A stretch of 64,000 nt of DNA. Source: Antedon mediterranea (taxonomy: Eukaryota; Animalia; Echinodermata). Below the pieces are notes generated by a model. It made no database searches, was not told the origin of the DNA, and saw only the letters and a list, made by a program, of their open reading frames with translations. The stretch spans positions 37,210,304 to 37,274,303 of the forward strand of contig NC_092671.1 of the NCBI RefSeq assembly GCF_964355755.1. The letters are read 5' to 3'. The position numbers and the translations under genes are program-made. Shown here piece by piece: positions 34,963 through 61,620 of the stretch (positions are counted from its first letter, which is position 1; every line of letters begins with the position of its first letter).

Positions 34963-37131
34963 TTAATAATTAAATATTTTTACATTGTTTGCTCTGTTGT
35001 TTGCCAATGCCACTCTTCTTGGTCTTTGTGAGATTACAGCAATCCCACATGGAAGACCCAACCCATCATCTTCGTTATCTATTCGTTTAATGAATTTACC
35101 ATTTTGATCAAATAGTTGTAGTTTATGATTACTGGATACTATCATATTCCCATCCATATCTATGGTTATACCATGAGGACCCCAGACTTTACCATCTTCT
35201 TTACTATAGCCTACAAGAATCTTTATCAGCTTATCATTACCATCAAACATTTGTATTCTGTCATTTCCAAAATCAACAACAATCAAATGACCATCCTTTG
35301 TTACAGCAACATCATATGGTTCTTTCATTTGACCTGCTTTACTACCTTCAGAACCTATCTTACCCAGTAGACTACCATCATCAATATTGAATTTAAACAC
35401 ACAGTGACATTCACGATCTGCTACATATAACATCCTGGTCTTTTGGTTTACTGTTACTCCCATTGGATATTTTAATACTCCTTTACCAAAGGTTCGGATT
35501 TCATGATATTGATTATCACACATTACAACACATTTACCTAAATAGTCACTATACACCATGTGACCATTGCCTATTTGATGCATTTTAATGACTTGTACAT
35601 TTTGTGGTATTTGTATCTTAGAAACAAAACCACCTGATTGATCAAACTTTATTAAATCTTTACTGTAGCTGGACACTAACATATATCCATCAGTATTAAA
35701 TACTACATCTGTCACTTTGTTTGTTTTATGATCTTCTTTATACTCTGATATGTTATCTATGGTATGTACAAGTCCAACTGGTTCCACCTTGATACTCACT
35801 GGTGAACCTATGACGTGCGACATATCTCCATCAGTAATATCCATGTGCCAGTCTCCTTCCAAATCACATCTACCTGTTACTGTGTACTCTCCCTTTCTGC
35901 GTGTTACTTCAGTGGTTGATTTCTCACCTGATGAGTTGCTTAGTGTGGCTGTTAATTGACCAACATCACTCTCTGCTAGAATTGATACTTTCACACTAAA
36001 TGGCTGTCCTTTTGTAACTGAAATGTTCTCATCTTCTTTATTAACATTGTGTACACCACCAACAGTGATAAGTTTACCAACACCTTCATGATTCATCAAC
36101 TCAACCAGTTTTGGAGACGGAATAAACTTTGGTGTAATTCTTGTTTTAGCAAATGATTTATCCAATTCATCTGCTGCAGCGTCATTCCCAACTACAGTGA
36201 TAGTTGTCTGGTATGATGCAAGGTTTTCTGTTTCTGTTGGTTTATTCATTGTTTTCTTGATTGATTCCATCAACGTGTTTACTTGTGTCAGCTTGGATTC
36301 AATACTTTTAACTTGACGATCAATCACTTTGCTTTGTTCTTTATAAATCTGTGTAAGATTTGCCATCATTATCTTTGTTTCTTCCTTCACCTTTCTGATA
36401 ATTGTCTTCTCATGAATTTCAATCGCTGTTCTGCTTAACTTCAAATTGGATTCAAACTCTGATCTCTCTTTAGTGATAACATCTAATCTCTCTTTTAGTT
36501 TTCTCTTAATTCCTTCAGCTGTCTTCATCGTTTCAGTAACAGTTGTATTAATCTCATTCAGAGCTATCTTCATTGGGATCACCTCATGTTTATTTCTATA
36601 ACAACGGACAATATGCTTGCAATCTTCACATGCAGGAAGTTTACATGTACGACAGTAATCTTCCAGTTTTTTATCCGGGTGATTTTGGCAGTTTAGTGAA
36701 TCTTCACTTTGTTCTTCTATGTCTGCATCCAGTGTGTATAGTGGATGGTTCTCTAGCGCAGGGAACATCTTATGATGTTGGATGCATTGTCGACACATAT
36801 ACATTTCACATTCAGAGCAATAGTCCTGAGGTTGATTCGCACATCTTGAGCATGCTTCTGGTTTTTCAGATTCAATCTTCTCAACGTATTCAACTAGGTA
36901 ACTGATTGTTTCATTGCACTTCAGATGTTTCAAATCACCATCTTTAAGATCGTAAGTCTCACGGCATTTTGGACATCGTATCTTGCCGTGTCTTCTCATC
37001 AAATCTTGCAGACAGTTAAGACAGTAAGTGTGAAGACAATTAAGCGCCTTTGGATCTGTGAATCTTTGTAGACAGATTGAACATTCCAGATCTCTTTTGT
37101 CAAAAAACTTCAATACTGTTTTAGCAGACAT
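34963..37131 (-). CDS. TRIM-NHL family E3 ligase, copy 4 (722 aa)
   Basis: Same architecture and length as copy 3; intact ORF. Confidence 0.95.
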   Translation of the reverse strand: MSAKTVLKFFDKRDLECSICLQRFTDPKALNCLHTYCLNCLQDLMRRHGKIRCPKCRETYDLKDGDLKHLKCNETISYLVEYVEKIESEKPEACSRCANQPQDYCSECEMYMCRQCIQHHKMFPALENHPLYTLDADIEEQSEDSLNCQNHPDKKLEDYCRTCKLPACEDCKHIVRCYRNKHEVIPMKIALNEINTTVTETMKTAEGIKRKLKERLDVITKERSEFESNLKLSRTAIEIHEKTIIRKVKEETKIMMANLTQIYKEQSKVIDRQVKSIESKLTQVNTLMESIKKTMNKPTETENLASYQTTITVVGNDAAADELDKSFAKTRITPKFIPSPKLVELMNHEGVGKLITVGGVHNVNKEDENISVTKGQPFSVKVSILAESDVGQLTATLSNSSGEKSTTEVTRRKGEYTVTGRCDLEGDWHMDITDGDMSHVIGSPVSIKVEPVGLVHTIDNISEYKEDHKTNKVTDVVFNTDGYMLVSSYSKDLIKFDQSGGFVSKIQIPQNVQVIKMHQIGNGHMVYSDYLGKCVVMCDNQYHEIRTFGKGVLKYPMGVTVNQKTRMLYVADRECHCVFKFNIDDGSLLGKIGSEGSKAGQMKEPYDVAVTKDGHLIVVDFGNDRIQMFDGNDKLIKILVGYSKEDGKVWGPHGITIDMDGNMIVSSNHKLQLFDQNGKFIKRIDNEDDGLGLPCGIAVISQRPRRVALANNRANNVKIFNY

Positions 37132-37680
37132 CTGTAAAATACAATACAGTATTTTTTTCAGTTAGTGTAAACTAAGATGTATTCCAGAAGGAATGACAGA
37201 GTGTGAGGATGCTCAACATAACCTTAATGTTGGCTTTGGATGGATGGCTAAGAAAGAATATAAGAAAATGGTTTCTAAAAATGTCTACAATTAAAAAGAA
37301 AAGCAACCAACATAAACTACGGTAACGGTAACCTCTGTAAGTTTACAAAAAAAAATCCCATCATCGCTACTGTATAATACAAAGGTCAACAAATATACAT
37401 AATGAATGTTTATGAGTTGAATGGGGTTAATTTTAATGATTATAAAAATTGAGGCTGTCACAAATACAACATTCGTTATTTGCTTCATAACCGTCACACA
37501 TTGTGTAACAACTTTTATTCAATTTCATGTATTGTAAATGGCGACACCACGCAGTAGATATCAAGTCGGCTTTCACAAATATAACCCAACCTATCGTATC
37601 GAATACCATTATAAAACTGTTTACACAAAGCTAAGAAGAGTGGCCTACAATAATATAGGGCCTACCTTCAATCGTTAAAA

Positions 37681-38460
37681 GGAGATTTACACACACCACA
37701 AATAGGTTAAGCTTCCAAGTTTATTCAGATTATACATATTTAACAATACATAATATTTATTTCTACTGATACTGTACAAGCAATGCTAAAAACTACTAAA
37801 GCTTAATAATAAACTACATTTGGCCTCTTGGGGGCTACCACTCATTTGACATCGCTGTATGAAAGGTCCAGTGTGTTGTCACAGGAGCCAGATCAAATGG
37901 TTGTTATTAAGTATATCGGTAAGGATGTAATAAGTGACATCCGTTAGGTAAATTGTGGAATTTGGGGGCAAAATAATTCCCCAGAATTATACCAGCCAAA
38001 TTAGCGAATAACCTGAGTAACATATGAGTAGCACCTGTGTTGAGTTAGGTGTTGGATGATGCCGGGGGATGGCTGGGTGGGAAAGATTGAAAAGTTTGTA
38101 CAACTATCGAACGGCTAATTTAACAATGAAGTGTGCTAGTATGCATCTTAGTAAACAACTGAAAACACACTGAATTCCCATTGGTTGCCAATTAGAAATT
38201 AGCCTATCCTACATTTTTGTGGTTCCACTATTAGATATACCCGTTGGTCTATAGAAATACATTGTCAATTACTGTGGTTGGAACTTTGATAAAGTGTCTC
38301 CCTTGACTAACATTCCGTTTTAATTACCTGTAAAAACAATATACCATTCATCCTAACACTTCTATTACTCTGAAATCTACCCACATTTATATACCACATC
38401 CTTAGTTAAAAGAAAGTACTTGTGCCGTGTATAAACTATAATTTATTACTTTAAATTTCC
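37681..38460. mobile_element. Unclassified ~780-bp insertion
   Basis: Interrupts gttaaaa|tga...aaataatacatggctgg as seen in the other units. Short inverted ends GGAGATTTA / TAAATTTCC. Confidence 0.45.
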
Positions 38461-38490
38461 TGAAAATAATACATGGCTGGATACAAAAGA

Positions 38491-41400
38491 TATGGCAAGC
38501 CTCAGCTGTCTGAAGTATTCAAAATATTATATTATTATATCATTTTTTTATTATATTATATATTGTATTGTAATGAATTATACATTTTGCATTATATTAC
38601 TTGGTTTTAGCATTATATTATATCTATTTCTAATATATTATGTGAAAAATGTAACAAATTATTGACTTTTTGTATTATATTATTTGGTTTTAGCATTATA
38701 TTATGAACATTTAATATTATATTATTAATAAAATACATTATATTAAAATATAATTGTATTATATTAAACGCATTTACTTTACTTTATAACATACAACATT
38801 ATTATATTATACGGATTCGTTAGTTATATTATTATGTTGTACGATGTTTATTATACGTCACGGCTTATTTCAGTTCTTCTAACTCTTTCTCTCCCTCCCC
38901 CTGTTCACTAGCAATCAGCGGCCGGCAGAATCTGAATTGTGACTGTTGAAGAATAACTACGTACTAGGCCTAGCCTAGGCCTACTAGGGGATCTAGACAA
39001 GTGACCAAGGATCACCGGACAGCTACAACTAATACTACAATACAATAATACTACTACAATAACTACTACTGCTACTACCTAGGCCTAGCTAGTGAGTAGT
39101 AGGTAGCTACTACTAGGCTCTAGGGCGTATGTATGATGTTAACTACTAGGTAGGGCTAGGCCTAACTAGAGGCCTACTAGTACTAGGCTAGGCCTAGACT
39201 TAAGTTGTAGTAGGCTAGGGCCGGGCCTGCTGCCTTAGGCTAGGCTACTACTACTACTAATACTACTAGGCAGCCCATGATGGGTACGAGTAAGCCAAAA
39301 TTTTGGATATATGTAAACCAAAATTTGGGTACGAGCGTGTTGGCATGGCATGCGTACGGGTTAACCTGTATCCTTCTAGCTAATCGTACTATGCCTAGGC
39401 CTCAAGTAAGTCTACGCTACCCAGTCCGGCTACAATATGGTCTATTTTGTTTTATAGCTTTATTGATAGCTGGGTTCAAATCTGGGTTGGGACGGCTTTT
39501 TCTCATTCTAAAACAGATTTCCTTATAATAAAATAATATATGAATTTATTTGTAATATTGTAATGTATACATAATATAAGTAATTGCCATTGCCTTTATT
39601 ACTATTAATTATGTATTAATAATTATACGGTTACCCCTTAATTATACTATATTATAATTTCATTGTTATATTTTACAATATTTTCTTCCTAATTCTACAA
39701 TTTTGTCTTTCACAGCACAAATTTATCATACTGAATCATCACACACCAAGTCTCATAAATCTCTACTGTATTTGTCCAAGCTACTCCAGCTACATGGTAT
39801 TGCCTTGAGGCTAAATTACACGGTATACTGGCACTACCATCATTCCTGGCTCGTCAACCTGTACCACATAAGCACAGTTTCAGTTTCAGTTTATTTACCA
39901 TTTCAATTTCTGAACATAAGAGATGAACAACTTATATGGATGGATAACCGTAAGAGCGAAGCTCGTTTACCGGTCACCCGTTAGTGCAGTGACATTACAG
40001 ACAACATAAAGACAGGACAAAGGTGCAATACTTAACAAGACATGTGAACACTTGTGTTTGCAACCCCTTGGATAAAATAATATATTTATATAATGGAGAA
40101 AGTTAGATATTATAATATTTCTTTTTGATCATACAATGATAATTTTTAAATTACTTCTTAAGAAGTCATACTACTGATTCAAAATAGTGACTTACACCCT
40201 GTGGTCAAGGCTTTCTTTGCTCTTAGGCTTATTTCCTCCAACATACAGAGTACATAGGACTTTTTTTATTCATAACTGTTGAATTGTTTCCCAATACATA
40301 GTACCTATTGGTATTATATCTAAAAATACAAAGGCGGCTAACACAGATAGTTCCATATATACAGTACTCTTTTATAAATAAATGTATCTCTCCAAACTAC
40401 TCCCAACTACCTAATCTAATAATAGTACTATTAGCATACTACTATACACTTTGTAGACAAGAAATAAGTTGTATACACTAGAGGACTTATGGTAGTACAG
40501 TCGATCGCCCTCTAACTGGCCCGGTCAACATAATCTATACCTAGATTATTACAGTAATTAAAGTACATTATTACAGAGTTTTTTTTTTTTTGCAGAAATC
40601 AAAGTTATGTGTATAGAAAGCAGTACTCGTATTAAAAACTAAGCAGGTTTTTGAACGCAAACTGGCAGGATATTTTGAATATTTTTTGTTGTTGAAACGA
40701 TGGAATCCTAACTTCAATTTCCACGAACCCTTTTATTTAAATTTATTTGAATAGACCTCCATGTAAACTCATTAAAGGCTACATGATTGTTTTATATTTT
40801 AATATGTGATAGTAGAAAATCATTGTGTATAATGAGGACTATGAATCTGATATTTACTTGCATTCTCATCTTTTTAAATTATTATTTATAATGCCGGTAA
40901 TGAGTTTAAAATTTAATTATATTGACTATTTTTGATAATCATCATGTCCTTATAAATTCATTTATATTTCTTTTGTGTAATATAGTTCATATATTATGTA
41001 TTAAGTAAATTGGTAAGGCCCTATACTGTTACTATTTAAGGAAAGTTTATATACACTATTATTTTATGCCTACCAATATTAGTATTAATTGTTTATGTAA
41101 ATATTTTGTCTAATTGCCTTGATTTTTTGTATAGGCCAATGGCATCAATGTTTTTCTCAAAGCAAATTAGCCTAATAATGCCACATTTAGACACATGATT
41201 CATTGATTTCTGATATTCTGTACTTGTGTATGCATTACTAAAATAGTAGTTAATATATTTCATTTATAATGTATGTATAAACATATATTCATATTTTTTT
41301 AAACATTTTTAAATTTAAAAATTATTACAATACCTATCTACCTTTCTGATATTGTTACTATTATATATTATTTTTTGAGGCAGCAATAAAAAAAAAATTA

Positions 41401-44400
41401 GAACAATTAATTTGAGTTATACTGTACTATGTTAGTTCAGGAGATGAAGTGTGTGTGGGCAGAAACTAGTGTGTTGGAGGTTGGTGGTGTGAGGTGTATA
41501 GTTGTCACTTTAAGATCTAAATTAGATGTTTTCTGAAGAAAAGAAGTAAGCGCATACGCTTTCAAACAACTCCAAGAAGATTCACACAAAAATAATTACT
41601 TTCCAATAAAGTAGTATAACAGTGTATATTACAGTACATTGAATAAACTCGAGCGGAATAATAACGCACATAAAAAAACATTCATTTTCTTTTCGAAAAG
41701 TGCCCTCTCTAGTTTTCTATTAATTTATTAATAATTATTATTAATTAATGAGTAATATGAACATATTTTTAACATTCAATGCTGGAAGCTGGTTCTACTC
41801 CTAACAAAGTTTCATATCTCCAAATTTCATCAACGTATTCAAAGCACTTCAATATTAAATATCACATTTAACATAAAAATTCGGGTTTTGGATAGAATTT
41901 TGCTTAAAAACATATACAAAAAACATCGATAAAAAATACTTTTCGTATTCAAAAACATTTGATACTTGGTATAAATGTTCACTATAGGTTGCTCTATTCA
42001 CAGAAAAAAAATTGCATTCATGAACGTTTTTTGTTGGTTGTTTTTTCAAAATAGTTATTAGCTTGAAAAAAACGAGTTGGAATTGTATGGTCTTTCATAA
42101 GTGTACATTTTGTAAAAACGTAAATTTAAAAAATCAGTGATATGGCTTGATAGTTATTTTTGGTTTGCAATATGGATGGAGCAACCTATATTGAACATTT
42201 ATACCAAGTATAAAATGTTTTTGAATACGAAAAGTATTTTTTATCGATGTTTTTTGTATATGTTTTTAAGCAAAATTATATCCAAAACCTGAATTTGTAA
42301 TGTTAAATGTAATTTATTTAAGTGCTTTGAATACGTTGATGAAATTTGGAGATATGAAACTTTGTTAGGAGTAGATACAGTTTCCAGCATTAAATTTTAA
42401 AAATATGTTCATATTACTCATTAATTGATAATAATTATTAATAAATTAATAGAAAACTAGAGAGGGCACTTTTCGACAAGAAAATGAATGTTTTTTTATG
42501 TGTGTTATTATTCCGCTCGAGTTTATTCAATGTACTGTAATATACACTGTTATACTATTTTATTGGAAAGTAAATATTTTTGTGTGAATCTTCTTGGAGT
42601 TGTTTGAAAGCGTATCCGCTTACTTCTTTTCTTCAGAAAACATCTAATTTAGGTCTTAAAGTGACAACTATACACCTCACACCATCAACCTCCAACACAC
42701 TAGTTTCTGCTCACACACACTTCATCTCCTGAACTAACATAGTACAGTATAAGTCAAATAAATTTTTTAATTTTTTTTTATTGCTGCCTCCAAAAATATT
42801 ATATAATAGTAACAATATCAGAAAGGTAGATAGGTATTGTAATAATTTTTAAATTTAAAAATGTTAAAAAAAATATGAATATATGTTTATACATACATTA
42901 TAAATGAAATATATTAACTACTATTTTAGTAATGCATACACAAGTACAGAATATCAGAAATCAATGAATCATGTGTCTAAATGTGGCATTATTAGGCTAA
43001 TTTGCTTTGAGAAAAACATTGATGCCATTGGCCTATACAAAAATCAAGGCAATTAGACAAAATATTTACATAAACAATTAATACTAATATTGGTAGGCAT
43101 AAAATAATAGTGTATATAAACTTTCCTTAAATAATAACAGTATAGGGCCTTACCAATTTATTTAATACATAATATATGAACTATATTACACAAAAAAAGT
43201 ATAAATGAATTTATAAGGACATGATGATTATCAAAAATAGTCAATATAATTAAATTTTAAACTCATTACCGGCATTATAAATAATATTTTAAAAAGATAA
43301 GAATGCAAGTAAATATCAGATTCATAGTCCTCATTATACACAATGATTTCCTACTATCACATATTAAAATATAAAACAATCATGTAGCCTTTAATTTCTT
43401 TACATGGAGGTCTATTCAAATAAATTTAAATAAAAGGGTCATAATATGTCTTCGTCTCCAGTTCGTGGAAATTGAAGTTAGGATTCCATCATTTCAACAA
43501 CAAAAAATATTCAAAATATCCTGCCAGTTTGCATTCAAGACCTGCAACCTGCTTAGTTTTTAATACGAGTACTGCTTTCTATACACATAACTTTGATTTC
43601 TGCAAAAAAAAAAAAAAACTCTGTAATAATGTACTTTAAATACTGTAATAATCTAGGTATAGATTATGTTGACCGGGCCAGTTAGAGGGCGTTCGACTGT
43701 ACTACCATAAGTCCTGTAGGTGTATACAACTTATTTCTTGTGTATAGTAGTATGCTAATGGTACTATTATTAGATTAGGTAGTTGGGAGTAGTTTGGAGA
43801 GATACATCTATCTATAAAAGAGTACTGTATATATGGAACTATCTGTGTTAGCCGCCTTTGTATTTTTAGATATAATACCAATAGGTACTATGTATTGGGA
43901 AACAATTCAACAGTTATGAATAAAAAAAGTCCTATGTACTCTGTATGTTGGAGGAAATACGCATAAGAGCAAATAAAGCCTTGACCACAGGGTGTAAGTC
44001 ACTATTTTGAATCAGTAGTATGACTTCTTAAGAAGTAATTTAAAAATTATCATTGTATGATCAAAAAGAAATATTATAATATCTAACTTTCTCCTTTATA
44101 TAATAAATATATTATTTTATCCAAGGGGTGGCAAACACAAGTGTTCACATGTCTTGTTAAGTATTGCACCTTTGTCCTGTCTTTATGTTTTCTGTAATGT
44201 CACTGCACTAACGGGTGACCGGTAAACGAGCTCCGCTCTTACGGTTATCCATCCATATAAGTTGTTCATCTCTTATGTTCAGAAATTGAAATGGTAAATA
44301 AACTGAAACTGTGCTTATGTGGTACAGGTTGACGAGCCAGGAATGATGGTAGTGCCAGTATACCGTGTAGTTTAGCCTCAAGGCAATACCATGTAGCTGG

Positions 44401-45693
44401 AGTAGCTTGGACAAATACAGTAGAGATTTATGAGACTTGGTGTGTGATGATTCAGTATGATAAATTTGTGCTGTGAAAGACAAAATTGTAGAATTAGGAA
44501 GAAAATATTGTAAAATATAACAAGGAAATTATACTATAGTATAATTAAGGAGTAACCGTATAATACATAATTAATAGTAATAAAGGCAATGGCAATTACT
44601 TATATTATGTATACATTACAATAATATTACAAATAAATTCATATATTATTTTATTATGATAAGGAAATCTGTTTTAGAATGAGAAAAAGTCGTCCCAACC
44701 CAGATTTGAACCCAGCTATCAATAAAGCTATAAAACAAAATAGACCATATTGTAGCCGGACTGGGTAGCGTAGACTTACTTGAGGCCTAGGCATAGTACG
44801 ATTAGCTAGAAGGATACAGGTCAACCCGTACGCATGCCATGCCAACACGCTCGTACCCAAATTTTGGTTTACATATATCCAAAATTTTGGCTTACTCGTA
44901 CCCATCATGGGCTGCCTAGTAGTAGTAGTAGTAGTAGTAGCCTAGCCTAAGGCAGCAGGCCCGGCCCTAGCCTACTACAACTTAAGTCTAGGCCTAGCCT
45001 AGTACTAGTAGGCCTCTAGGCCTAGCCTAGGCCCTAGTAGTTAACATCATACATACGCCCTAGAGCCTAGTATATTCCTACCTACTACTCACTAGCTAGG
45101 CCTAGGTAGTAGCAGTAGTAGTTATTGTAGTAGTATTATTGTATTGTAGTATTAGTTGTAGCTGTCCGGTGATCCTTGGTCACTTGTCTAGATCCCCTAG
45201 TAGGCCTAGGCTAGGCCTAGTACGTAGTTATTCTTCAACAGTCACAATTCAGATTCTGCCGGCCGCTGATTGCTAGTGAACAGGGGGAGGGAGAGAAAGA
45301 GTTAGAAGAACTGAAATAAGCCGTGACGTATAATAAACATCATACAAAATAATAATATAACTAACGAATCCGTATAATATAATAATGTTGTATGTTATAA
45401 AGTAAAGTAAATGCGTTTAATATAATACAATTATATTATAATATAATGTATTTTATTAATAATATAATATTAAATGTTCATAATATAATGCTAAAACCAA
45501 ATAATATAATACAAAAAGTCAATAATTTGTTACATTTTTCACATAATATATTAGAAATAGATATAATATAATGCTAAAACCAAGTAATATAATGCAAAAC
45601 GTATAATTCATTACAATACAATATATAATATAATAAAAAAATGATATAATAATATAATATTTTGAATACTTCAGACAGCTGAGGCTTGCCATA
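38491..45693 (+). mobile_element. Giant foldback DNA element A (non-autonomous, IS3EU-like termini)
   Basis: Inverted arms 38491-41994 and 42179-45693, spacer 41995-42178. Ends TATGGCAAGCC...GGCTTGCCATA. TSD AAAAGA at 38485-38490 and 45694-45699. Confidence 0.9.
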
Positions 45694-45764
45694 AAAAGAT
45701 ATTATCCATGTGTGTTATAATACACATTGTATATAGAACCTTATTTTTTTTTTTTATCTTATAT

Positions 45765-48700
45765 TATGGCAAGCCTCAGCTGTCTGAAGTATTCAAAATA
45801 TTATATTATTATATCATTTTCTATTATATTATATATTGTATTGTAATGAATTATACGTTTTGCATTATATTACTTGGTTTTAGCATTATATTATATCTAT
45901 TTCTAATATATTATGTGAAAAATGTAACAAATTATTGACTTTTTGTATTATATTATTTGGTTTTAGCATTATATTATGAACATTTAATATTATATTAGTA
46001 ATAAAATACATTATATTATAATATAATTGTATTATATTAAACGCATTTACTTTACTTTATAACATACAACATTATTATATTATACGGATTCGTTAGTTAT
46101 ATTATTATTTTGTATGATGTTTATTATACGTCACGGCTTATTTCAGTTCTTCTAACTCTTTCTCTCCCTCCCCCTGTTCACTAGCAATCAGCGGCCGGCA
46201 GAATCTGAATTGTGTGACTGTTGAAGAATAACTACGTACTAGGCCTAGCCTAGGCCTACTAGGGGATCTAGACAAGTGACCAAGGATCACCGGACAGCTA
46301 CAACTAATACTACAATACAATAATACTACTACAATAACTACTACTGCTACTACCTAGGCCTAGCTAGTGAGTAGTAGGTAGCTACTACTGGGCGTATGTA
46401 TGATGTTAACTACTAGGGCCTATCTAGGCTAGGCCTAGAGGCCTACTAGGCTAGGCCTAGACTTAAGTTGTAGTAGGCTAGGGCCGGGCCTGCTGCCTTA
46501 GGCTAGGCTACTACTACTACTACTACTAGGCAGCCCATGATGGGTACGAGTAAGCCAAAATTCTGGATATATGTAAACCAAAATTTGGGTACGAGTGTGT
46601 TGGCATGGCATGGGTACGGGTTGACCTGTATCCTTCTAATCTAGCTAATCGTACTATGCCTTGGCCTCAAGTAAGTCTACGCTACCCAGTCCGGCTACAA
46701 TATGGTCTATTTTGTTTTATAGCTTTATTGATAGCTGGGTTCAAATCTGTGTTGGGACGGCTTTTTCTCATTCTAAAACAGATTTCCTTATAATAAAATA
46801 ATATATGAATTTATTTGTAATATTGTAATGTATACATAATATAAGTAATTGCCATTGCCTTTATTACTATTAATTATGTATTATACTGTTACCCCTTAAT
46901 TATACTATAGTATAATTTCCTTGTTATATTTTACAATATTTTCTTCCTAATTCTACAATTTTGTCTTTCACAGCACAAATTTATCATACTGAATCATCAC
47001 ACACCAAGTCTCATAAATCTCTACTGTATTTGTCCAAGCTACTCCAGCTACATGGTATTGCCTTGAGGCTAAACTACACCGTATATTGGCACTACCATCA
47101 TTCCTGGCTCGTCAACCTGTACCACATAAGCACAGTTTCAGTTTCAGTTTATTTACCATTTCAATTTCTGAACATAAGAGATGAACAACTTATATGGATG
47201 GATAACCGTAAGAGCGAAGCTCGTTTACCGGTCACCCGTTAGTGCAGTGACATTACAGAAAACATAAAGACAGGACAAAGGTGCAATACTTAACAAGACA
47301 TGTGAACACTTGTGTTTGCAACCCCTTGGATAAAATAATATATTTATATAAAGGAGAAAGTTAGATATTATAATATTTCTTTTTGATCATACAATGATAT
47401 TTTTTTAATTACTTCTTAAGAAGTCATACTACTGATTCAAAATAGTGACTTACACCCTGTGGTCAAGGCTTTATTTGCTCTTATGCTTATTTCCTCCAAC
47501 ATACAGAGTACATAGGACTTTTTTTATTCATAACTGTTGAATTGTTTCCCAATACATAGTACCTATTGGTATTATATCTAAAAATACAAAGGCGACTAAC
47601 ACAGATAGTTCCATATATACAGTACTCTTTTATAGATAGATGTATCTCTCCAAACTACTCCCAACTACCTAATCTAATAATAGTACTATTAGCATACTAC
47701 TATACACTTTGTAGACAAGAAATAAGTTGTATACACCTACAGGACTTATGGTAGTACAGTCGATCGCACTCTCACTGGCCCGGTCAACATAATCTATACC
47801 TAGATTAATATTACAGTAATTAAAGTACATTATTACAGAGTTTTGTTTTTTTTTGTTATGTGTATAGAAAGCAGTACTCGTATTAAAAACTAAGCAGGTT
47901 GCAGGTCTTGAATGCAAACTGGCAGGATATTTTGAATATTTTTTGTTGTTGAAATGATGGAATCCTAACTTCAATTTCCACGAACTGGAGACGAAGACAT
48001 ATTATGACCCTTTTATTTAAATATTTGAATAGACCTCCATGTAAAGTAATTAAAGGCTACATGATTGTTTTATAGTTTAATATGTGATAGTAGGAAATCA
48101 TTGTGTATAATGAGGACTATGAATCTGATATTTACTTGCATTCTTATCTTTTTAAAATATTGTTTATAATGCCGGTAATGAGTTTAAAATTTAATTATAT
48201 TGACTATTTTTGATAAATCATCATGTCCTTATAAATTCATTTATACTTTTTTTGTGTAATATAGTTCATATATTATGTATTAAATAAATTGGTAAGGCCC
48301 TATACTGTTATTATTTAAGGAAAGTTTATATACACTATTATTTTATGCCTACCAATATTAGTATTAATTGTTTATGTAAATATTTTGTCTAATTGCCTTG
48401 ATTTTTGTATAGGCCAATGGCATCAATGTTTTTCTCAAAGCAAATTAGCCTAATAATGCCACATTTAGACACATGATTCATTGATTTCTGATATTCTGTA
48501 CTTGTGTATGCATTACTAAAATAGTAGTTAATATATTTCATTTATAATGTATGTAGGCATATAAACATATATTCATATTTTTTTTAACATTTTTAAATTT
48601 AAAAATTATTACAATACCTATCTACCTTTCTGATATTGTTACTATTATATAATATTTTTTGAGGCAGCAATAAAAAAAAATTAAAAAATTTATTTGACTT

Positions 48701-51700
48701 ATACTGTACTATGTTAGTTCAGGAGATGAAGTGTGTGTGGGCAGAAACTAGTGTGTTGAAGGTTGGTGGTGTGAGGTGTATAGTTGTCACTTTAAGACCT
48801 AAATTAGATGTTTTCTGAAGAAAAGAAGTAAGCGGATACGCTTTCAAACAACTCCAAGAAGATTCACACAAAAATAATTACTTTCCAATAAAATAGTATA
48901 ACAGTGTATATTACAGTACATTGAATAAACTCGAGCGGAATAATAACACACATAAAAAAACATTCATTTTCTGGTCGAAAAGTGCCCTCTCTAGTTTTCT
49001 ATTAATTTATTAATAATTATTATCAATTAATGAGTAATATGAACATATTCTTAAAATTTAATGCTGGAAACTGTATCTACTCCTAACAAAGTTTCATATC
49101 TCCAAATTTCATCAACGTATTCAAAGCACTTAAATAAATTACATTTAACATTACAAATTCAGGTTTTGGATATAATTTTGCTTAAAAACACATACAAAAA
49201 ACATCGATAAAAAATACTTTTCGTATTCAAAAACATTTGATACTTGGTATAATTGTTCAATATAGGTTGCTCCATCCATATTGCAAACAAAAAATAACTA
49301 TCAAGCCATATCACTGATTTTTTAAATTTACGTTTTTACAAAATGTACACTTATGAAAGACCATATAATTCCAACTCATTTTTTTCAAGCTAATAACTAT
49401 TTTGAAAAAACAACCAACAAAAAACGTCCATGAATGCAATTTTTTTCTGTGAATAGAGCAACCTATAGTGAACATTTATACCAAGTATCAAATGTTTTTG
49501 AATACGAAAAGTATTTTTTATCGATGTTTTTTGTATATGTTTTTAAGCAAAATTCTATCCAAAACCCGAATTTTTATGTTAAATGTGATATTTAATATTG
49601 AAGTGCTTTGAATATGTTGATGAAATTTGGAGATATGAAACTTTGTTAGGAGTAGAACCAGCTTCCAGCATTGAATGTTAAAAATATGTTCATATTACTC
49701 ATTAATTAATAATAATTATTAATAAATTAATAGAAAACTAGAGAGGGCACTTTTCGAAAAGAAAATGAATGTTTTTTATGTGCGTTATTATTCCGCTCGA
49801 GTTTATTCAATGTACTGTAATATACACTGTTATACTACTTTATTGGAAAGTAATTATTTTTGTGTGAATCTTCTTGGAGTTGTTTGAAAGCGTATGCGCT
49901 TACTTCTTTTCTTCAGAAAACATCTAATTTAGGTCTTAAAGTGACAACTATACACCTCACACCACCAACCTCCAACACACACTTCATCTCCTGAACTAAC
50001 ATAGTACAGTATAACTCAAATTAATTGTTCTAATTTTTTTTTTATTGCTGCCTCAAAGAATATTATATAATAGTAACAATATCAGAAAGGTAGATAGGTA
50101 TTGTAATAATTTTTAAATTTAAAAATGTTAAAAAAAATATGAATATATGTTTATACATACATTATAAATGAAATATATTAACTACTATTTTAGTAATGCA
50201 TACACATGTACAGAATATCAGAAATCAATGAATCATGTGTCTAAATGTGGCATTATTATTAGGCTAATTTGCTTTGAGAAAAACATTGATGCCATTGGCC
50301 TATACAAAAAATCAAGGCAATTAGACAAAATATTTACATAAACAATTAATACTAATATTGGTAGGCATAAAATAATAGTGTATATAAACTTTCCTTAAAT
50401 AGTAACAGTATAGGGCCTTACCAATTTACTTAATACATAATATATGAACTATATTACACAAAAGAAATATAAATGAATTTATAAGGACATGATGATTATA
50501 AAAAATAGTCAATATAATTAAATTTTAAACTCATTACCGGCATTATAAATAATAATTTAAAAAGATGAGAATGCAAGTAAATATCAGATTCATAGTCCTC
50601 ATTATACACAATGATTTTCTACTATCACATATTAAAATATAAAACAATCATGTAGCCTTTAATGAGTTTACATGGAGGTCTATTCAAATAAATTTAAATA
50701 AAAGGGTTCGTGGAAATTGAAGTTAGGATTCCATCATTTCAACAACAAAAAATATTCAAAATATCCTGCCAGTTTGCGTTCAAAAACCTGCTTAGTTTTT
50801 AATACGAGTACTGCTTTCTATACACATAACTTTGATTTCTGCAAAAAAAAAAAAACTCTGTAATAATGTACTTTAATTACTGTAATAATCTAGGTATAGA
50901 TTATGTTGACCGGGCCAGTGATCGACTGTACTACCATAAGTCCTCTAGTGTATACAACTTATTTCTTGTCTACAAAGTGTATAGTAGTATGCTAATAGTA
51001 CTATTATTAGATTAGGTAGTTGGGAGTAGTTTGGAGAGATACATTTATTTATAAAAGAGTACTGTATATATGGAACTATCTGTGTTAGCCGCCTTTGTAT
51101 TTTTAGATATAATACCAATAGGTACTATGTATTGGGAAACAATTCAACAGTTGTGAATAAAAAAAGTCCTATGTACTCTGTATGTTGGAGGAAATAAGCA
51201 TAAGAGCAAAGAAAGCCTTGACCACAGGGTGTAAGTCACTATTTTGAATGAGTAGTATGACTTCTTAAGAAGTAATTTAAAAATTATCATTGTATGACCA
51301 AAAAGAAATATTATAATATCTAACTTTCTCCATTATATAAATCATGGAGTCTTTACTCCATGTATAAATATATTATTTTATCCAAGGGGTTGCAAACACA
51401 AGTGTTCACATGTCTTGTTAAGTATTGCACCTTTGTCCTGTCTTTATGTTTTCTGTAATGTCACTGCACTAACGGGTGACCGGTAAACGAGCTTCGCTCT
51501 TACGGTTATCCATCCATAAGTTGTTCATCTCTTATGTTCAGAAATTGAAATGGTAAATAAACTGAAACTGAAACTGTGCTTATGTGGTACAGGTTGACGA
51601 GCCAGGAATGATGGTAGTGCCAGTATACCGTGTAATTTAGCCTCAAGGCAATACCATGTAGCTGGAGTAGCTTGGACAAATACAGTAGAGATTTATGAGA

Positions 51701-52956
51701 CTTGGTGTGTGATGATTCAGTATGATAAATTTGTGCTGTGAAAGACAAAATTGTAGAATTAGGAAGAAAATATTGTAAAATATAACAAGGAAATTATACT
51801 ATAGTATAATTAAGGGGTAACCGTATAATACATAATTAATAGTAATAAAGGCAATGGCAATTACTTATATTATGTATACATTACAATATTACAAATAAAT
51901 TCATATATTATTTTATTATAAGGAAATCTGTTTTAGAATGAGAAAAAGCCGTCCCAACCCAGATTTGAACCCAGCTATCAATAAAGCTATAAAACAAAAT
52001 AGACCATATTGTAGCCGGACTGGGTAGCGTAGACTTACTTGAGGCCTAGGCATAGTACGATTAGCTAGAAGGATACAGGTTAACCCGTACCCATGCCATG
52101 CCAACACGCTCGTACCCAAATTTTGGTTAACATATATCCAAAATTTTGGCTTACTCGTACCCATCATGGGCTGCCTAGTAGTAGTAGTAGTAGTAGTAGC
52201 CTAGCCTAAGGCAGCAGGCCCGGCCCTAGCCTACTACAACTTAAGTCTAGGCCTAGCCTAGTACTAGTAGGCCTCTAGGCCTAGCCTAGGCCTACCTAGT
52301 AGTTAACATCATACATACGCCCTAGAGCCTAGTAGTAGCTACCTACTACTCACTAGCTAGGCCTAGGTAGTAGCAGTAGTAGTTATTGTAGTAGTATTAT
52401 TGTATTGTAGTATTAGTTGTAGCTGTCCGGTGATCCTTGGTCACTTGTCTAGATCCCCTAGTAGGCCTAGGCTAGGCCTAGTACGTAGTTATTCTTCAAC
52501 AGTCACACAATTCAGATTCTGCCGGCCGCTGATTGCTAGTGAACAGGGGGAGGGAGAGAAAGAGTTAGAAGAACTGAAATAAGCCGTGACGTATAATAAA
52601 CATCATACAAAATAATAATATAACTAACGAATCCGTATAATATAATAATGTTGTATGTTATAAAGTAAAGTAAATGCGTTTAATATAATACAATTATATT
52701 ATAATATAATGTATTTTATTAATAATATAATATTAAATGTTCATAATATAATGCTAAAACCAAATAATATAATACAAAAAGTCAATAATTTGTTACATTT
52801 TTCACACAATATATTAGAAATAGATATAATATAATGCTAAAACCAAGTAATATAATGCAAAACGTATAATTCATTACAATACAATATATAATATAATAAA
52901 AAAATGATATAATAATATAATATTTTGAATACTTCAGACAGCTGAGGCTTGCCATA
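45765..52956 (-). mobile_element. Giant foldback DNA element B (opposite orientation)
   Basis: Arms 45765-49272 and 49456-52956; spacer 49273-49455 is the reverse complement of A's. TSD TTATAT at 45759-45764 and 52957-52962. Confidence 0.9.
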
Positions 52957-52959
52957 TTA

Positions 52960-55900
52960 TATGGCAAGCCTCAGCTGTCTGAAGTATTCAAAATATTATA
53001 TTATTATATCATTTTTTTATTATATTATATATTGTATTGTAATGAATTATACGTTTTGCATTATATTACTTGGTTTTAGCATTATATTATATCTATTTCT
53101 AATATATTATGTGAAAAATGTAACAAATTATTGACTTTTTGTATTATATTATTTGGTTTTAGCATTATATTATGAACATTTAATATTATATTATTAATAA
53201 AATACATTATATTATAATATAATTGTATTATATTAAACGCATTTACTTTACTTTATAACATACAACATTATTATATTATACGGATTCGTTAGTTATATTA
53301 TTATGTTGTATGATGTTTATTATACGTCACGGCTTATTTCAGTTCTTCTAACTCTTTCTCTCCCTCCCCCTGTTCACTAGCAATCAGCGGCCGGCAGAAT
53401 CTGAATTGTGTGACTGTTGAAGAATAACTACGTACTAGGCCTAGCCTAGGCCTACTAGGGGATCTAGACAAGTGACCAAGGATCACCGGACAGCTACAAC
53501 TAATACTACAATACAATAATACTACTACAATAACTACTACTGCCACTACCTAGGCCTAGCTAGTGAGTAGTAGGTAGCTACTACTAGGCTCTATGGCGTC
53601 TGTATGATGTTAACTACTAGGTAGGGCCTAGCTAGGCTAGGCCTAACTAGAGGCCTACTAGTACTAGGCTAGGCCTAGACTTAAGTTGTAGTAGGCTAGG
53701 GCCGGGCCTGCTGCCTTAGGCTAGGCTACTACTACTACTACTACTACTAGGCAGCCCATGATGGGTACGAGTAAGCCAAAATTTTGGATATATGTAAACC
53801 AAAATTTGGGTACGAGCGTGTTGGCATGGCATGCATGGGTACGGGTTAACCTGTATCCTTCTAGCTAATCGTACTATGCCTAGGCCTCAAGTAAGTCTAC
53901 GCTACCCAGTCCGGCTACAATATGGTCTATTTTGTTTTATAGCTTTATTGATAGCTGGGTTCAAATCTGGGTTGGGACGGCTTTTTCTCATTCTAAAACA
54001 GATTTCCTTATAATAAAATAATATATGAATTTATTTGTAATATTGTAATGTATACATAATATAAGTAATTGCCATTGCCTTTATTACTATTAATTATGTA
54101 TTATACGGTTACCCCTTAATTATACTATAGTATAATTTCCTTGTTATATTTTACAATATTTTCTTCCTAATTCTACAATTTTGTCTTTCACAGCACAAAT
54201 TTATCATACTGAATCATCACACACCAAGTCTCATAAAACTCTACTGTATTTGTCCAAGCTACTCCAGCTACATGGTATTGCCTTGAGGCTAAATTACACG
54301 GTATACTGGCACTACCATCATTCCTGGCTCGTCAACCTGTACCACATAAGCACAGTTTCAGTTTCAGTTTATTTACCATTTCAATTTCTGAACATAAAAG
54401 ATGAACAACTTATATGGATGGATAACCGTAAGAGCGAAGCTCGTTTACCGGTCACCCGTTAGTGCAGTGACATTACAGACAACATAAAGACAGGACAAAG
54501 GTGCAATACTTAACAAGACATGTGAACACTTGTGTTTGCAACCCCTTGGATAAAATAATATATTTATATAATGGAGAAAGTTAGATATTATAATATTTCT
54601 TTTTGATCATACAATGATAATTTTTAAATTACTTAAGAAGTCATACTACTGATTCAAAATTCTGACTTACACCCTGTGGTCAAGGCTTTCTTTGCTCTTA
54701 TGCTTATTTCCTCCAACATACAGAGTACACAGGACTTTTTTTATTCATAACTGTTGAATTGTTTCCCAATACATAGTACCTATTGGTATTATATCTAAAA
54801 ATACAAAGGCGGCTAACACAGATAGTTCCATATATACAGTACTCTTTTATAAATAAATGTATCTCTCCAAACTACTCCCAACTACCTAATCTAATAATAG
54901 TACTATTAGCATACTACTATACACTTTGTAGACAAGAAATAAGTTGTATACACTAGAGGACTTATGGTAGTACAGTCGATCGCCCTCTCACTGGCCCGGT
55001 CAACATAATCTATACCTAGATTATTACAGTAATTAAAGTACATTATTACAGAGTTTTTTTTTTTTTTGCAGAAATCAAAGTTATGTGTATAGAAAGCAGT
55101 ACTCGTATTAAAAACTAAGCAGGTTTTTGAACGCAAACTGGCAGGATATTTTGAATATTTTTTGTTGTTGAAATGACGGAATCCTAACTTCAATTTCCAC
55201 GAACCCTTTTATTTAAATTTATTTGAATAGACCTCCATGTAAACTCATTAAAGGCTACATGATTGTTTTATATTTTAATATGTGATAGTAGAAAATCATT
55301 GTGTATAATGAGGACTATGAATCTGATATTTACTTGCATTCTCATCTTTTTAAATTATTATTTATAATGCCGGTAATGAGTTTAAAATTTAATTATATTG
55401 ACTATTTTTGATAATCATCATGTCCTTATAAATTCATTTATATTTCTTTTGTGTAATATAGTTCATATGATATTTATTAAGTAAATTGGTAAGGCCCTAT
55501 ACTGTTACTATTTAAGGAAAGTTTATATACACTATTATTTTATGCCTACCAATATTAGTATTAATTGTTTATGTAAATATTTTGTCTAATTTCCTTGATT
55601 TTTTGTATAGGCCAATGGCATCAATGTTTTTCTCAAAGCAAATTAGCCTAATAATGCCACATTTAGACACATGATTCATTGATTTCTGATATTCTGTACT
55701 TGTGTATGCATTACTAAAATAGTAGTTAATATATTTCATTTATAATGTATGTATAAACATATATTCATATTTTTTTAAACATTTTTAAATTTAAAAATTA
55801 TTACAATACCTATCTACCTTTCTGATATTGTTACTATTATATAATATTTTTTGAGGCAGCAATAAAAAAAAATTAGAACAATTAATTTGAGTTATACTGT

Positions 55901-58900
55901 ACTATGTTAGTTCAGGAGATGAAGTGTGTGTGGGCAGAAACTAGTGTGTTGGAGGTTGGTGGTGTGAGGTGTATAGTTGTCACTTTAAGATCTAAATTAG
56001 ATGTTTTCTGAAGAAAAGAAGTAAGCGCATACGCTTTCAAACAACTCCAAGAAGATTCACACAAAAATAATTACTTTCCAATAAAGTAGTATAACAGTGT
56101 ATATTACAGTACATTGAATAAACTCGAGCGGAATAATAACGCACATAAAAAAACATTCATTTTCTTTTCGAAAAGTGCCCTCTCTAGTTTTCTATTAATT
56201 TATTAATAATTATTATTAATTAATGAGTAATATGGACATATTTTTAACATTCAATGCTGGAAGCTGGTTCTACTCCTAACAAAGTTTCATATCTCCAAAT
56301 TTCATCAACGTATTCAAAGCACTTCAATATTAAATATCACATTTAACATAAAAATTCTGGTTTTGGATAGAATTTTGCTTAAAAACATATACAAAAAACA
56401 TCGATAAAAAATACTTTTCGTATTCAAAAACATTTGATACTTGGTATAAATGTTCACTATAGGTTGCTCTATTCACAGAAAAAAATTGCATTCATGAACG
56501 TTTTTTGTTGGTTGTTTTTTCAAAATAGTTATTAGCTTGAAAAAAATGAGTTGGAATTTTATGGTCTTTCATAAGTGTATATTTTGTAAAAACGTAAATT
56601 TAAAAAATCAGTGATATGGCTTGATAGTTATTTTTGGTTTGCAATATGGATGGAGCAACCTATATTGAACATTTATACCAAGTATCAAATGTTTTTGAAT
56701 ACGAAAAGTGTTTTTTATCGATGTTTTTTGTATATGTTTTTAAGCAAAATTATATCCAAAACCTGAATTTGTAATGTTAAATGTAATTTATTTAAGTGCT
56801 TTGAATACGTTGATGAAATTTGGAGATATGAAACTTTGTTAGGAGTAGATACAGTTTCCAGCATTAAATTTTAAAAATATGTTCATATTACTCATTAATT
56901 GATAATAATTATTAATAAATTAATAGAAAACTAGAGAGGGCACTTTTCGACAAGAAAATGAATGTTTTTTTATGTGTGTTATTATTCCGCTCGAGTTTAT
57001 TCAATGTACTGTAATATACACTGTTATACTATTTTATTGGAAAGTAATTATTTTTGTGTGAATCTTCTTGGAGTTGTTTGAAAGCGTATCCGCTTACTTC
57101 TTTTCTTCAGAAAACATCTATACACCTCACACCACCAACCTCCAACACACTAGTTTCTGCCCACACACACTTCATCTCCTGAACTAACATAGTACAGTAT
57201 AAGTCAAATAAATTTTTAATTTTTTTTTTATTGCTGCCTCAAAAAATATTATATAATAGTAACAATATCAGAAAGGTAGATAGGTATTGTAATAATTTTT
57301 AAATTTAAAAATGTTAAAAAAAATATGAATATATGTTTATACATACATTATAAATGAAATATATTAACTACTATTTTAGTAATGCATACACAAGTACAGA
57401 ATATCAGAAATCAATGAATCATGTGTCTAAATGTGGCATTATTAGGCTAATTTGCTTTGAGAAAAACATTGATGCCATTGGCCTATACAAAAATCAAGGC
57501 AATTAGACAAAATATTTACATAAACAATTAATACTAATATTGGTAGGCATAAAATAATAGTGTATATAAACTTTCCTTAAATAATAACAGTATAGGGCCT
57601 TACAAATTTATTTAATACATAATATATGAACTATATTACACAAAAAAAGTATAAATGAATTTATAAGGACATGATGATTATCAAAAATAGTCAATATAAT
57701 TAAATTTTAAACTCATTACCGGCATTATAAATAATATTTTAAAAAGATAAGAATGCAAGTAAATATCAGATTCATAGTCCTCATTATACACAATGATTTC
57801 CTACTATCACATATTAAAATATAAAACAATCATGTAGCCTTTATTGACTTTACATGGAGGTCTATTCAAATAAATTTAAATAAAAGGGTCATAATATGTC
57901 TTCGTCTCCAGTTCGTGGAAATTGAAGTTAGGATTCCATCATTTCAACAACAAAAAATATTCAAAATATCCTGCCAGTTTGCATTCAAGACCTGCAACCT
58001 GCTTAGTTTTTAATACGAGTACTGCTTTCTATACACATAACTTTGATTTCTGCAAAAAAAACAAAACTCTGTAATAATGTACTTTAAATACTGTAATAAT
58101 CTAGGTATAGATTATGTTGACCGGGCCAGTGAGAGGGCGTTCGACTGTACTACCATAAGTCCTCTAGTGTATACAACTTATTTCTTGTCTACAAAGTGTA
58201 TAGTAGTATGCTAATAGTACTATTATTAGATTAGGTAGTTGGGAGTAGTTTGGAGAGATACATCTATCTATAAAAGAGTACTGTATATATGGAACTATCT
58301 GTGTTAGCCGCCTTTGTATTTTTAGATATAATACCAATAGGTACTATGTATTGGGAAACAATTCAACAGTTATGAATAAAAAAAGTCCTATGTACTCTGT
58401 ATGTTGGAGGAAATACGCATAAGAGCAAATAAAGCCTTGACCACAGGGTGTAAGTCACTATTTTGAATCAGTAGTATGACTCCTTAAGAAGTAATTTAAA
58501 AATTATCATTGTATGATCAAAAAGAAATATTATAATATCTAACTTTCTCCTTTATATAATAAATATATTATTTTATCCAAGGGGTTGCAAACACAAGTGT
58601 TCACATGTCTTGTTAAGTATTGCACCTTTGTCCTGTCTTTATGTTTTCTGTAATGTCACTGCACTAACGGGTGACCGGTAAACGAGCTCCGCTCTTACGG
58701 TTATCCATCCATATAAGTTGTTCATCTCTTATGTTCAGAAATTGAAATGGTAAATAAACTGAAACTGAAACTGTGCTTATGTGGTACAGGTTGACGAGCC
58801 AGGAATGATGGTAGTGCCAGTATACCGTGTAGTTTAGCCTCAAGGCAATACCATGTAGCTGGAGTAGCTTGGACAAATACAGTAGAGATTTATGAGACTT

Positions 58901-60161
58901 GGTGTGTGATGATTCAGTATGATAAATTTGTGCTGTGAAAGACAAAATTGTAGAATTAGGAAGAAAATATTGTAAAATATAACAAGGAAATTATACTATA
59001 GTATAATTAAGGAGTAACCGTATAATACATAATTAATAGTAATAAAGGCAATGGCAATTACTTATATTATGTATACATTACAATAATATTACAAATAAAT
59101 TCATATATTATTTTATTATGATAAGGAAATCTGTTTTAGAATGAGAAAAAGCCGTCCCAACCCAGATTTGAACCCAGCTATCAATAAAGCTATAAAACAA
59201 AATAGACCATATTGTAGCCGGACTGGGTAGCGTAGACTTACTTGAGGCCTAGGCATAGTACGATTAGCTAGAAGGATACAGGTCAACCTGTACCCATGCC
59301 ATGCCAACACGCTCGTACCCAAATTTTGGTTTACATATATCCAAAATTTTGGCTTACTCGTACCCATCATGGGCTGCCTAGTAGTAGTAGTAGTAGTAGT
59401 AGTAGTAGCCTAGCCTAAGGCAGCAGGCCCGGCCCTAGCCTACTACAACTTAAGTCTAGGCCTAGCCTAGTACTAGTAGGCCTCTAGGCCTAGCCTAGGC
59501 CCTAGTAGTTAACATCATACATACGCCCTAGAGCCTAGTATATTCCTACCTACTACTCACTAGCTAGGCCTAGGTAGTAGCAGTAGTAGTTATTGTAGTA
59601 GTATTATTGTATTGTAGTATTAGTTGTAGCTGTCCGGTGATCCTTGGTCACTTTTCTAGATCCCCTAGTAGGCCTAGGCTAGGCCTAGTACGTAGTTATT
59701 CTTCAACAGTCACAATTCAGATTCTGCCGGCCGCGGATTGCTAGTGAACAGGGGGAGGGAGAGAAAGAGTTAGAAGAACTGAAATAAGCCGTGACGTATA
59801 ATAAACATCATACAAAATAATAATATAACTAACGAATCCGTATAATATAATAATGTTGTATGTTATAAAGTAAAGTAAATGCGTTTAATATAATACAATT
59901 ATATTATAATATAATGTATTTTATTAATAATATAATATTAAATGTTCATAATATAATGCTAAAACCAAATAATATAATACAAAAAGTCAATAATTTGTTA
60001 CATTTTCCACATAATATATTAGAAATAGATATAATATAATGCTAAAACCAAGTAATATAATGCAAAACGTATAATTCATTCCAATATAATATATAATATA
60101 ATAAAAAAATGATATAATAATATAATATTTTGAATACTTCAGACAGCTGAGGCTTGCCATA
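52960..60161 (+). mobile_element. Giant foldback DNA element C
   Basis: Arms 52960-56469 and 56653-60161, spacer 56470-56652. TSD ATCTTA at 45756-45761 and 60162-60167, the left copy displaced by B. Confidence 0.88.
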
Positions 60162-61470
60162 ATCTTATGTGGGTTCATCCCACTTTTATTTCCAAACCAC
60201 TGTTCTCTTTACATATATTTTTCACTATACACTATACATATCATTATATTTACAATGTTTGTTTAATCATCTGTATACATATACTTATTTATTCATTTGT
60301 TTACATATTATCACATTGATTAAACATATTATCTGTAACACATTTTCATTAACAAGCTTTTTTTTTTCTTACGTAGTTGTTTTTGATTTTTTCATCTACC
60401 ACATTTTCATTTAACAATGCATATTCTCTGTTATACTCATTACTTACTACATGTTTACTGTTAACATAATATTGTTCTCATCCTTTAACATTAATATTAA
60501 TATTTTTGTTCTTTAATGTTTACAAAACCAGCAGATCCTTTTTTGCATCTATAACTTCTTAAATTTTCATTTAACTTTTTTAATTTCTTCTCTTATGTGG
60601 ATTCATTCCACTTTTTTTTTTTTTACTTATTTTCTTTAAAAAAAAAACTATTTCCATATATTATTTTGTTTATACATACATTATCATTTAACCACATTGA
60701 TTACATAGTTTCCTCTTTTTATACATATTATCTATAACACATTTTCATTAACAAAGCTTATTTTTTCTTACATAGTTGTTTTTGTTTTTTTTTTTCATCT
60801 ACATGCATATTTATTTCATACAATTATAATACGTTTATGTTTAATAAATCCATCCCATGGGTTTGTCCCATTTTATTTTTCTTTGGATTTATCTATGCAA
60901 ACATATTTTCATTTAAACAATGCATATTCTCTGTTATACTAATTACTTACAAACTTTTTACTGTTAACATTATATTTTCCTCATCCTTTAACATTGATTT
61001 TTTTGATCTTTAAATGTTTACAAAATTTATTTCCAACAGATTATCCTTTTTTGCATCTACAGTATAACCCATCAAAGTTTCATTTAACTTTTTTTTTTCC
61101 TATGTGGGTTCATTCAATTATTTTTTTTTACTTATTATTTATTCTATTATTTTTTTATACATACATTATCATTTAACAAAATTTGTGTTTAATGATCCAT
61201 TAAAAAAATTAGACATTCTTTTTTTTCTTTTTAACCATTTTATCATTTCAAAATTCCACATGCAGTAAGAATGTGCAAATTACATATATACGGTATATAC
61301 CTATAATATGAAAGCTTTGATGAAAACACTTCCCCACTTAAACCTAAACCTTCTTATCCTTCATCATTTTTTTTTTATCATCAATCTATAAAAAGCTTTT
61401 CACATTTTGTCTTTTTGTTTTCAAATCATCAAGGTATACATGTTTACAAAACATACAGTATAGTAGCAAG

Positions 61471-61503
<33 letters not shown>

Positions 61504-61620
61504 AAACATAATAGATTCATCATTCATGGTATCTCATTTACATATTTTCTTCCTTAATCTGGTTGAGCATATACAGTATACCTGCAGATTTACATATTTC
61601 TTATATTTTTTTCAGATTTA
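60162..61620. mobile_element. AT-rich ~1.5-kb insertion that hosts B and C (its other end is at 45749-45761)
   Basis: Flanked by a 12-bp duplication AACCTTATTTTT at 45737-45748 and 61621-61632, with a T-run at its left end. Degenerate internal ~450-bp repeats and an A-tract at 61471-61502. Confidence 0.55.

Follow-up and report, generated by a model that had tools for sequence, protein, structure and literature searches.

Foldback transposons are non-coding elements built mostly of long terminal inverted repeats (TIRs), bounded by a target-site duplication (TSD) and carrying short tandem repeats in the outer part of the TIR. They are thought to arise repeatedly, through loss of the transposase and elongation of the TIRs, and most are said to be derived from Mutator (PMC4079207). 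Among the giant forms is copy 112 of Galileo in D. willistoni, a 9,021-bp element that lacks a transposase and lies between identical TSDs, its two TIRs measuring 4,246 and 4,680 bp (PMC4168063). Extension of the Galileo TIRs by repair has been proposed (PMC3573991), and nested transposable elements are described as having been transferred to both TIRs (PMC3573991, PMC4168063).

A second point of comparison is the IS3EU/GingerRoot superfamily of DNA transposons. IS3EU families have TA..TA ends and usually a 6-bp TSD (PMC10045372), and those of rusts end in TAYGG..CCRTA (PMC12730594). TIRs of 100–150 bp are given for GingerRoot (PMC6839031) and one of 43 bp for REP9 (PMC8232023). TSDs of 6 bp are also found in Polinton, Ginger2 and some LTR elements, with Polinton termini beginning AG.. 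and those of Ginger reading TG..CA (PMC6839031). General background is available elsewhere (PMC11934779, PMC6431247, PMC11071193).

Here we analyse a 64,000-nucleotide stretch of the Antedon mediterranea genome (NC_092671.1, positions 37,210,304 to 37,274,303; hereafter the window, in which all coordinates are given) that contains three closely packed palindromic elements. On sequence comparison, we consider it probable that these are copies of one gene-less, foldback-type transposon of 7.2 kb, which transposes as a whole palindrome, duplicates 6 bp of target and is likely mobilised through cut and paste by an IS3EU/GingerRoot-type transposase supplied from another locus.

Results

A BLAST comparison of the window with itself resolved the interval 38491–60161 into three units of 7.2 kb that align with their own minus strands. 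Together with the junction sequences, it bears out the architecture described in the first-pass annotation, namely three elements with ~3.5-kb inverted arms, a 183–184-bp spacer and TATGG...CCATA ends. E1 (38491..45693, plus strand, 7,203 bp) comprises arm A (38491–41994), a spacer (41995–42178) and arm B (42179–45693). E2 (45765..52956, minus strand, 7,192 bp) reads arm B (45765–49272), spacer (49273–49455) and arm A (49456–52956), and E3 (52960..60161, plus strand, 7,202 bp) has the order of E1, with arm A at 52960–56469, the spacer at 56470–56652 and arm B at 56653–60161. The spacer of E2 is the reverse complement of those in E1 and E3, so E2 is inverted relative to both, a point missing from the first reading. 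The gaps between elements are 71 bp (E1–E2) and 3 bp (E2–E3). TATGG or CCATA is found at all six ends, and a search of the window with the terminal 30-mer, allowing up to 4 mismatches, gave six matches, precisely at these ends.

The arms make up ~97.5% of each element. Defined strictly, the spacer is 184, 183 and 183 bp long in E1, E2 and E3, respectively, or 171–172 bp if the final imperfect 6 bp on each side are assigned to the arm. Within a copy, the two arms are 97.75–97.84% identical when substitutions are counted (75–78 in ~3,460 columns, with a further 79–147 gap columns) and 93.9–95.8% identical by BLAST with gaps; the longest perfect run shared by the two arms is 190–391 bp. Long TIRs thus constitute most of a non-coding, TSD-flanked element, as in foldbacks, and an outer domain of short tandem repeats is present as well. 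A 9-bp core recurs ten times at 38526..38809 (plus strand), for the most part every 21 bp, within the first 320 bp of the element; the array is short and degenerate, and is mirrored at the other five ends. These subterminal cores are likely transposase-binding sites.

All three elements have exact 6-bp TSDs (read on the plus strand), with a joint chance of ~4 × 10⁻¹⁰ calculated from flank composition. E1 is flanked by AAAAGA at 38485..38490 and 45694..45699, and a paralogous empty site at 1296..1377 (plus strand) has the same flanks around a single AAAAGA. The TSD of E2 is TTATAT (45759..45764 and 52957..52962), its right copy overlapping the first 3 bases of E3. For E3, the right TSD is ATCTTA (60162..60167), but the six bases directly to the left of the element read ATATTA; the left ATCTTA is displaced to 45756..45761, on the far side of E2. 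The first-pass annotation had assigned each element its own 6-bp TSD. The three different, exact hexamers stand, whereas ATCTTA does not adjoin the left end of E3 and sits to the left of E2.

This arrangement follows from nesting: E2 lies 3 bp inside the left end of E3, so that the ATCTTA duplication brackets E2 and E3 together. The TTATAT target joins TTA, from the left TSD of E3, to TAT, the original first 3 bases of E3, and these copies are therefore nested rather than three free-standing insertions. The only history that accounts for every base has E3 inserting first, at ATCTTA, and E2 then entering the hexamer across the left boundary of E3; the reverse order can be discounted, as it would be expected to leave ATATTA to the right of E3. 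At the E2/E3 junction a 149-bp perfect inverted repeat surrounds 3 bases. A 9-bp TSD was also considered and rejected, since it fits E1 only and the E2 duplication cannot be extended. For E3, no empty counterpart turned up among the paralogs.

Alignment of the six arms divided them into two types, separated by 40 fixed substitutions with a tree support of 1.0. Type A comprises the left arms of E1 and E3 (E1L, E3L) and the right arm of E2 (E2R), and type B the right arms of E1 and E3 (E1R, E3R) and the left arm of E2 (E2L). Arms of the same type are 98.7–99.3% identical, compared with 97.55–98.0% for arms of opposite type. As both types are common to all three copies, the palindrome formed first and then moved whole. 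Complete copies differ by 55–80 substitutions (98.9–99.2% identity). The proposals that the family was recently active and moves as an almost complete palindrome thus hold up well.

Public sequence data covered 20 listed runs from eight studies. At least half of the sampled words were present in five runs, all from one organism and two studies, and the best of these may come from the same source as the window; contig evidence comes from 5 of the 20 runs, and the small-share runs X11–X20 were not counted. Contigs lose rare variants, and their summed depth is not equal to copy number. Two contigs from run X2 bridge arm, spacer and arm, one at 41952–42221 with 4 other letters and one at 41916–42253 with 38 other letters in 339, as does a contig from run X8, from another organism, at 41928–42245. 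Their arm overhangs are near-symmetric about the spacer (49/49, 85/81 and 73/73 bases), as would be expected where arms collapse in the assembly graph. The single centre-covering contig listed for run X10 departs from the spacer at 42071, and none of the contigs listed for run X6 bridges the centre. The loose contig ends listed yielded no flanks of further insertions.

Fixed differences between A and B arms accumulate towards the centre, with 4, 3, 12 and 21 in successive quarters from outer to inner (chi2 P = 1 × 10⁻⁴), compared with 24, 23, 21 and 19 for the other 87 variable sites (P = 0.88). Arm-to-arm divergence within E1 also rises from end to centre, at 1.4, 1.4, 2.2 and 3.6%. Two variants, at 39353 and 40514, are present on both arms of E1 and have no match in the other copies, with a chance of independent origin of ~5 × 10⁻⁴; position 39353 is ambiguous in E3L owing to a 4-bp duplication. 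At both positions, public contigs hold the other base at 98–100% of depth in all four runs examined. Variants shared by both arms within a copy were seen in one of the three copies (E1). The end-to-centre rise and the two E1 variants together point to arm-to-arm gene conversion, and indicate short conversion tracts in E1. In eight further events the A state appears on the B arm of E2, all within the outer 59% (P ~ 0.014, for a boundary chosen afterwards).

Several other features of the elements were recorded. The spacers (42001–42172 and its two counterparts) differ between copies somewhat more than the arms do, at 6 of 171 versus 93 of 6,918 columns, a weak effect (P = 0.03). A segment at 40772–41512, mirrored in all arms, is bounded by facing TTAA-AG motifs and resembles a nested TTAA-targeting MITE, possibly Kolobok-like, that is now in both arms. 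The module at 39271–39509 is common to other repeats: at least nine X2 contigs and at least three X8 contigs diverge from the element at 39509, and X8 coverage nearly vanishes over 39512–39964.

No transposase reading frame was found in the palindrome, in line with the initial view of a non-autonomous element. Pfam returned no family at cut-off in 29 of the 31 stop-to-stop frames of at least 40 aa in arm A and the centre; the two frames left out of the scan start in the flank. A 108-aa frame had no homolog among longer proteins, which is weak evidence, and five hits to a 47-aa frame were rejected, as all were tandem-repeat translations with no significant single stretch. No coding remnant emerged from these Pfam and homolog scans. 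Rfam gave no matches across the whole window, and the terminal 22-mer none in metagenome contigs.

The termini TATGG..CCATA fit the TAYGG..CCRTA of IS3EU elements at all five bases, and the TSD is 6 bp with no fixed consensus at three of three insertions, albeit three hexamers at one locus. The first-pass annotation had named TAY..RTA ends with a 6-bp TSD as the IS3EU signature, and published descriptions of the superfamily agree (PMC10045372, PMC12730594). The ends differ from the AG.. of Polinton/Maverick and the TG..CA of Ginger2, and the 6-bp TSD differs from the 8–10 bp of Mutator-derived foldbacks of the Tetris type and the 7–8 bp of Galileo and the P superfamily. With no transposase linked to the palindrome, assignment to a superfamily rests on five terminal bases and TSD length; the element likely works as a non-autonomous IS3EU transposon, and we do not file it as a proven member.

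The elements lie beside a tandem cluster of single-coding-exon TRIM-NHL genes on the minus strand, with start codons at 777, 8163, 24098 and 37131. Three long frames were identified as TRIM-NHL, their closest named relatives being Antedon mediterranea proteins (89–91% identity), followed by those of Anneissia japonica. The host gene has an open coding exon encoding RING, B-box and NHL domains (34963..37131, minus strand), and an AG acceptor immediately precedes the ATG in this and the other paralogs, four in all. A donor-like motif lies ~0.83 and ~0.76 kb upstream in two paralogs, compared with 24.6 kb in the copy beside the elements. The conserved donor and acceptor motifs make it likely that the stack sits in a predicted 5′-UTR intron of ~24.6 kb (37132..61748, minus strand).

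Further repeats and insertions surround these genes. In the copy with its ATG at 8163, the longest frame begins at 7969 without a RING hit and looks broken near its start. A LINE-type element (10050–13373, plus strand) has one frame for an endonuclease and one for a reverse transcriptase, between which an in-frame stop lies at 11745–11747. A 42-bp minisatellite recurs near the TRIM paralogs at 27579–33220 (134.6 copies), 4154–5474 (31.1) and 61869–61983 (2.8), with 54-bp arrays at 9628–9986 and 13480–14546 and a 48-bp array at 63357–64000. An insertion of ~780 bp (37686–38462) with short inverted ends, matched by many public contigs and absent from three paralogous stretches, ends ~25 bp from the E1 target. 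Another of ~1.5 kb (45737–45761 plus 60168–61632), which starts with a T-run and is bounded by a 12-bp direct repeat at 45737 and 61621, has the appearance of a minus-strand retro-insertion with a poly(A) tail; the insertion point of E3 lies immediately behind that T-run. A motif at 61841–61850, ~100 bp upstream of the predicted donor, is one that we take to be NF-kB-like, and this region is a possible TRIM promoter.

Discussion

With gaps of 71 bp and 3 bp between its near-identical copies, the stack could in principle reflect local duplication of a single insertion, through unequal exchange, rolling-circle replication or breakage-fusion-bridge, rather than three transpositions. This is highly improbable: the three exact TSDs all differ, the middle copy is inverted and the junctions can be resolved into two insertions, one after the other. 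A TSD at the junction between tandem copies is a described mark of multiple insertion (PMC5932611). We attach still less weight to a sequencing or assembly artefact, such as fold-back chimeric reads or a mis-joined repeat. Long palindromes are prone to such artefacts. However, fold-back of a read would give near-identical arms within a copy, and the opposite was seen: the many arm substitutions keep the same A/B phase in all three copies, including the reversed E2, and the longest perfect arm-to-arm runs are 190–391 bp. Contigs from two organisms bridge the centre, and the TSD logic is exact.

Two further alternatives accept the mobile palindrome. One interprets the gradient as age: the centre would be an older palindromic MITE, and the outer arms the product of one or two subsequent copying events. 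A smooth exponential gradient (log-likelihood −189.6, 2 parameters) and a two-step model with breaks near 40090 and 41665 (−187.1, 5 parameters) fit about equally well, which makes an older central palindrome with younger outer arms a live rival. Short stretches of the centre match other repeats whose flanks are unrelated, seen as loose contig ends at 41946 and 42066–42111, and the more diverged X2 contig also has a palindromic centre. A one-step model, by contrast, fits worse (−192.4), no inner TSD-bounded palindromic element was identified within the arms or centre, and the two E1 variants show that conversion occurs. We regard stepwise growth as a possible but minority explanation; it and conversion are not exclusive, and both can hold. 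The other alternative concerns the mobilising enzyme, which might belong to another 6-bp-TSD DDE group or to an undescribed one. The missing link to a transposase and the wider occurrence of 6-bp TSDs noted above (PMC6839031) leave room for this, but Polinton and Ginger ends are different, all five terminal bases match TAYGG..CCRTA, and the TSDs of Mutator-type elements and Galileo do not fit, so we think it unlikely.

If the palindrome is indeed a foldback mobilised by an IS3EU/GingerRoot-type enzyme, its ancestor would have been stripped of its coding centre by DNA repair that used one end as template for the other and lengthened the TIR until ~180 bp remained unique, along the lines proposed for Galileo (PMC3573991). 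A DDE transposase of this superfamily, acting in trans, would bind the ends and the 21-bp-spaced subterminal repeats, and arm-to-arm gene conversion, commonest near the ends, would keep the arms alike. E1 and E3 would have inserted at sites 62 bp from each other, in a TRIM intron where insertions were already abundant. E2 would then have landed 3 bp inside the end of E3, by local hopping or target preference, compare the tandem insertions of Drosophila (PMC5932611).

More speculatively, giant foldbacks may form a distinct class within IS3EU/GingerRoot: families of multi-kb palindromes of fixed length that spread in animals, target the ends of their own kind and maintain arm similarity through gene conversion that is anchored at the ends and coupled to the cycle of cutting and repair; we offer this only tentatively. 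If true, every copy would amount to a dated replicate of one experiment on arm conversion in palindromes, and the stack in the TRIM intron would give rise to three RNA hairpins of 3.5 kb. The present locus would extend the list of foldback-producing groups to a superfamily that has received little study. It also shows that a 7-kb near-palindrome can be transposed more than once without breaking up, even though inverted repeats are known to cause rearrangements (PMC10164571). Many copies with two distinguishable arms would allow a direct measure of arm conversion and its dependence on position. The stack enlarges a predicted 0.8-kb TRIM-NHL intron to 24.6 kb and, if transcribed, would yield long double-stranded RNA. 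In practice, palindromic elements of this kind may be taken for artefacts of fold-back reads, and short-read assembly collapses them.

The palindrome shares with IS3EU/GingerRoot elements a 6-bp TSD of no fixed sequence, and its 7.2 kb falls within the 3.9–12.9 kb given for GingerRoot. It differs in the absence of a DDE transposase, in inverted repeats of 3.5 kb compared with ~30–150 bp in the published families considered (over 30 bp, PMC12730594; 43 bp, PMC8232023; 100–150 bp, PMC6839031) and in its AT-rich targets, those of IS3EU/GingerRoot in Selaginella being GC-rich. A literature search, with Repbase, Dfam and most subscription journals outside its scope, revealed no IS3EU-ended foldback, no fixed-length IS3EU-ended family and no comparable crinoid element.

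Among foldbacks, Galileo copy 112 is likewise gene-less, consists almost entirely of two multi-kb inverted arms, is flanked by TSDs and holds other repeats in both arms. Given this precedent (PMC4168063) and the recurrent origin of foldbacks (PMC4079207), the suggestion of an unprecedented giant-foldback architecture was overstated. Galileo has 7–8-bp TSDs and very variable copies, with the giant form described as a single copy, whereas the three palindromes have a near-fixed length of 7,192–7,203 bp, stable arm types and 6-bp TSDs. FB4 and Tetris are also non-coding and combine long TIRs, short repeats arrayed in their outer part and a centre without genes (PMC2955051, PMC4079207), and a long-TIR foldback is reported from a sea urchin. 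FB4 copies measure 627–2,266 bp (PMC2955051) and Tetris has TIRs of up to 1,735 bp and TSDs of 8–10 bp (PMC4079207), compared with arms of 3.5 kb, mostly of non-repetitive sequence, here. The fold-back element Tc4 of C. elegans is similarly a near-complete, non-autonomous palindrome, but duplicates a 3-bp TNA at CTNAG rather than 6 bp. Its arms are reportedly ~0.8 kb, making it much smaller than the 7.2-kb palindrome. The palindrome is thus an unusually large variant of known foldback transposons, and what is unusual here is a fixed-length 7.2-kb family with IS3EU-type ends, 3-bp nesting and a measurable conversion signal.
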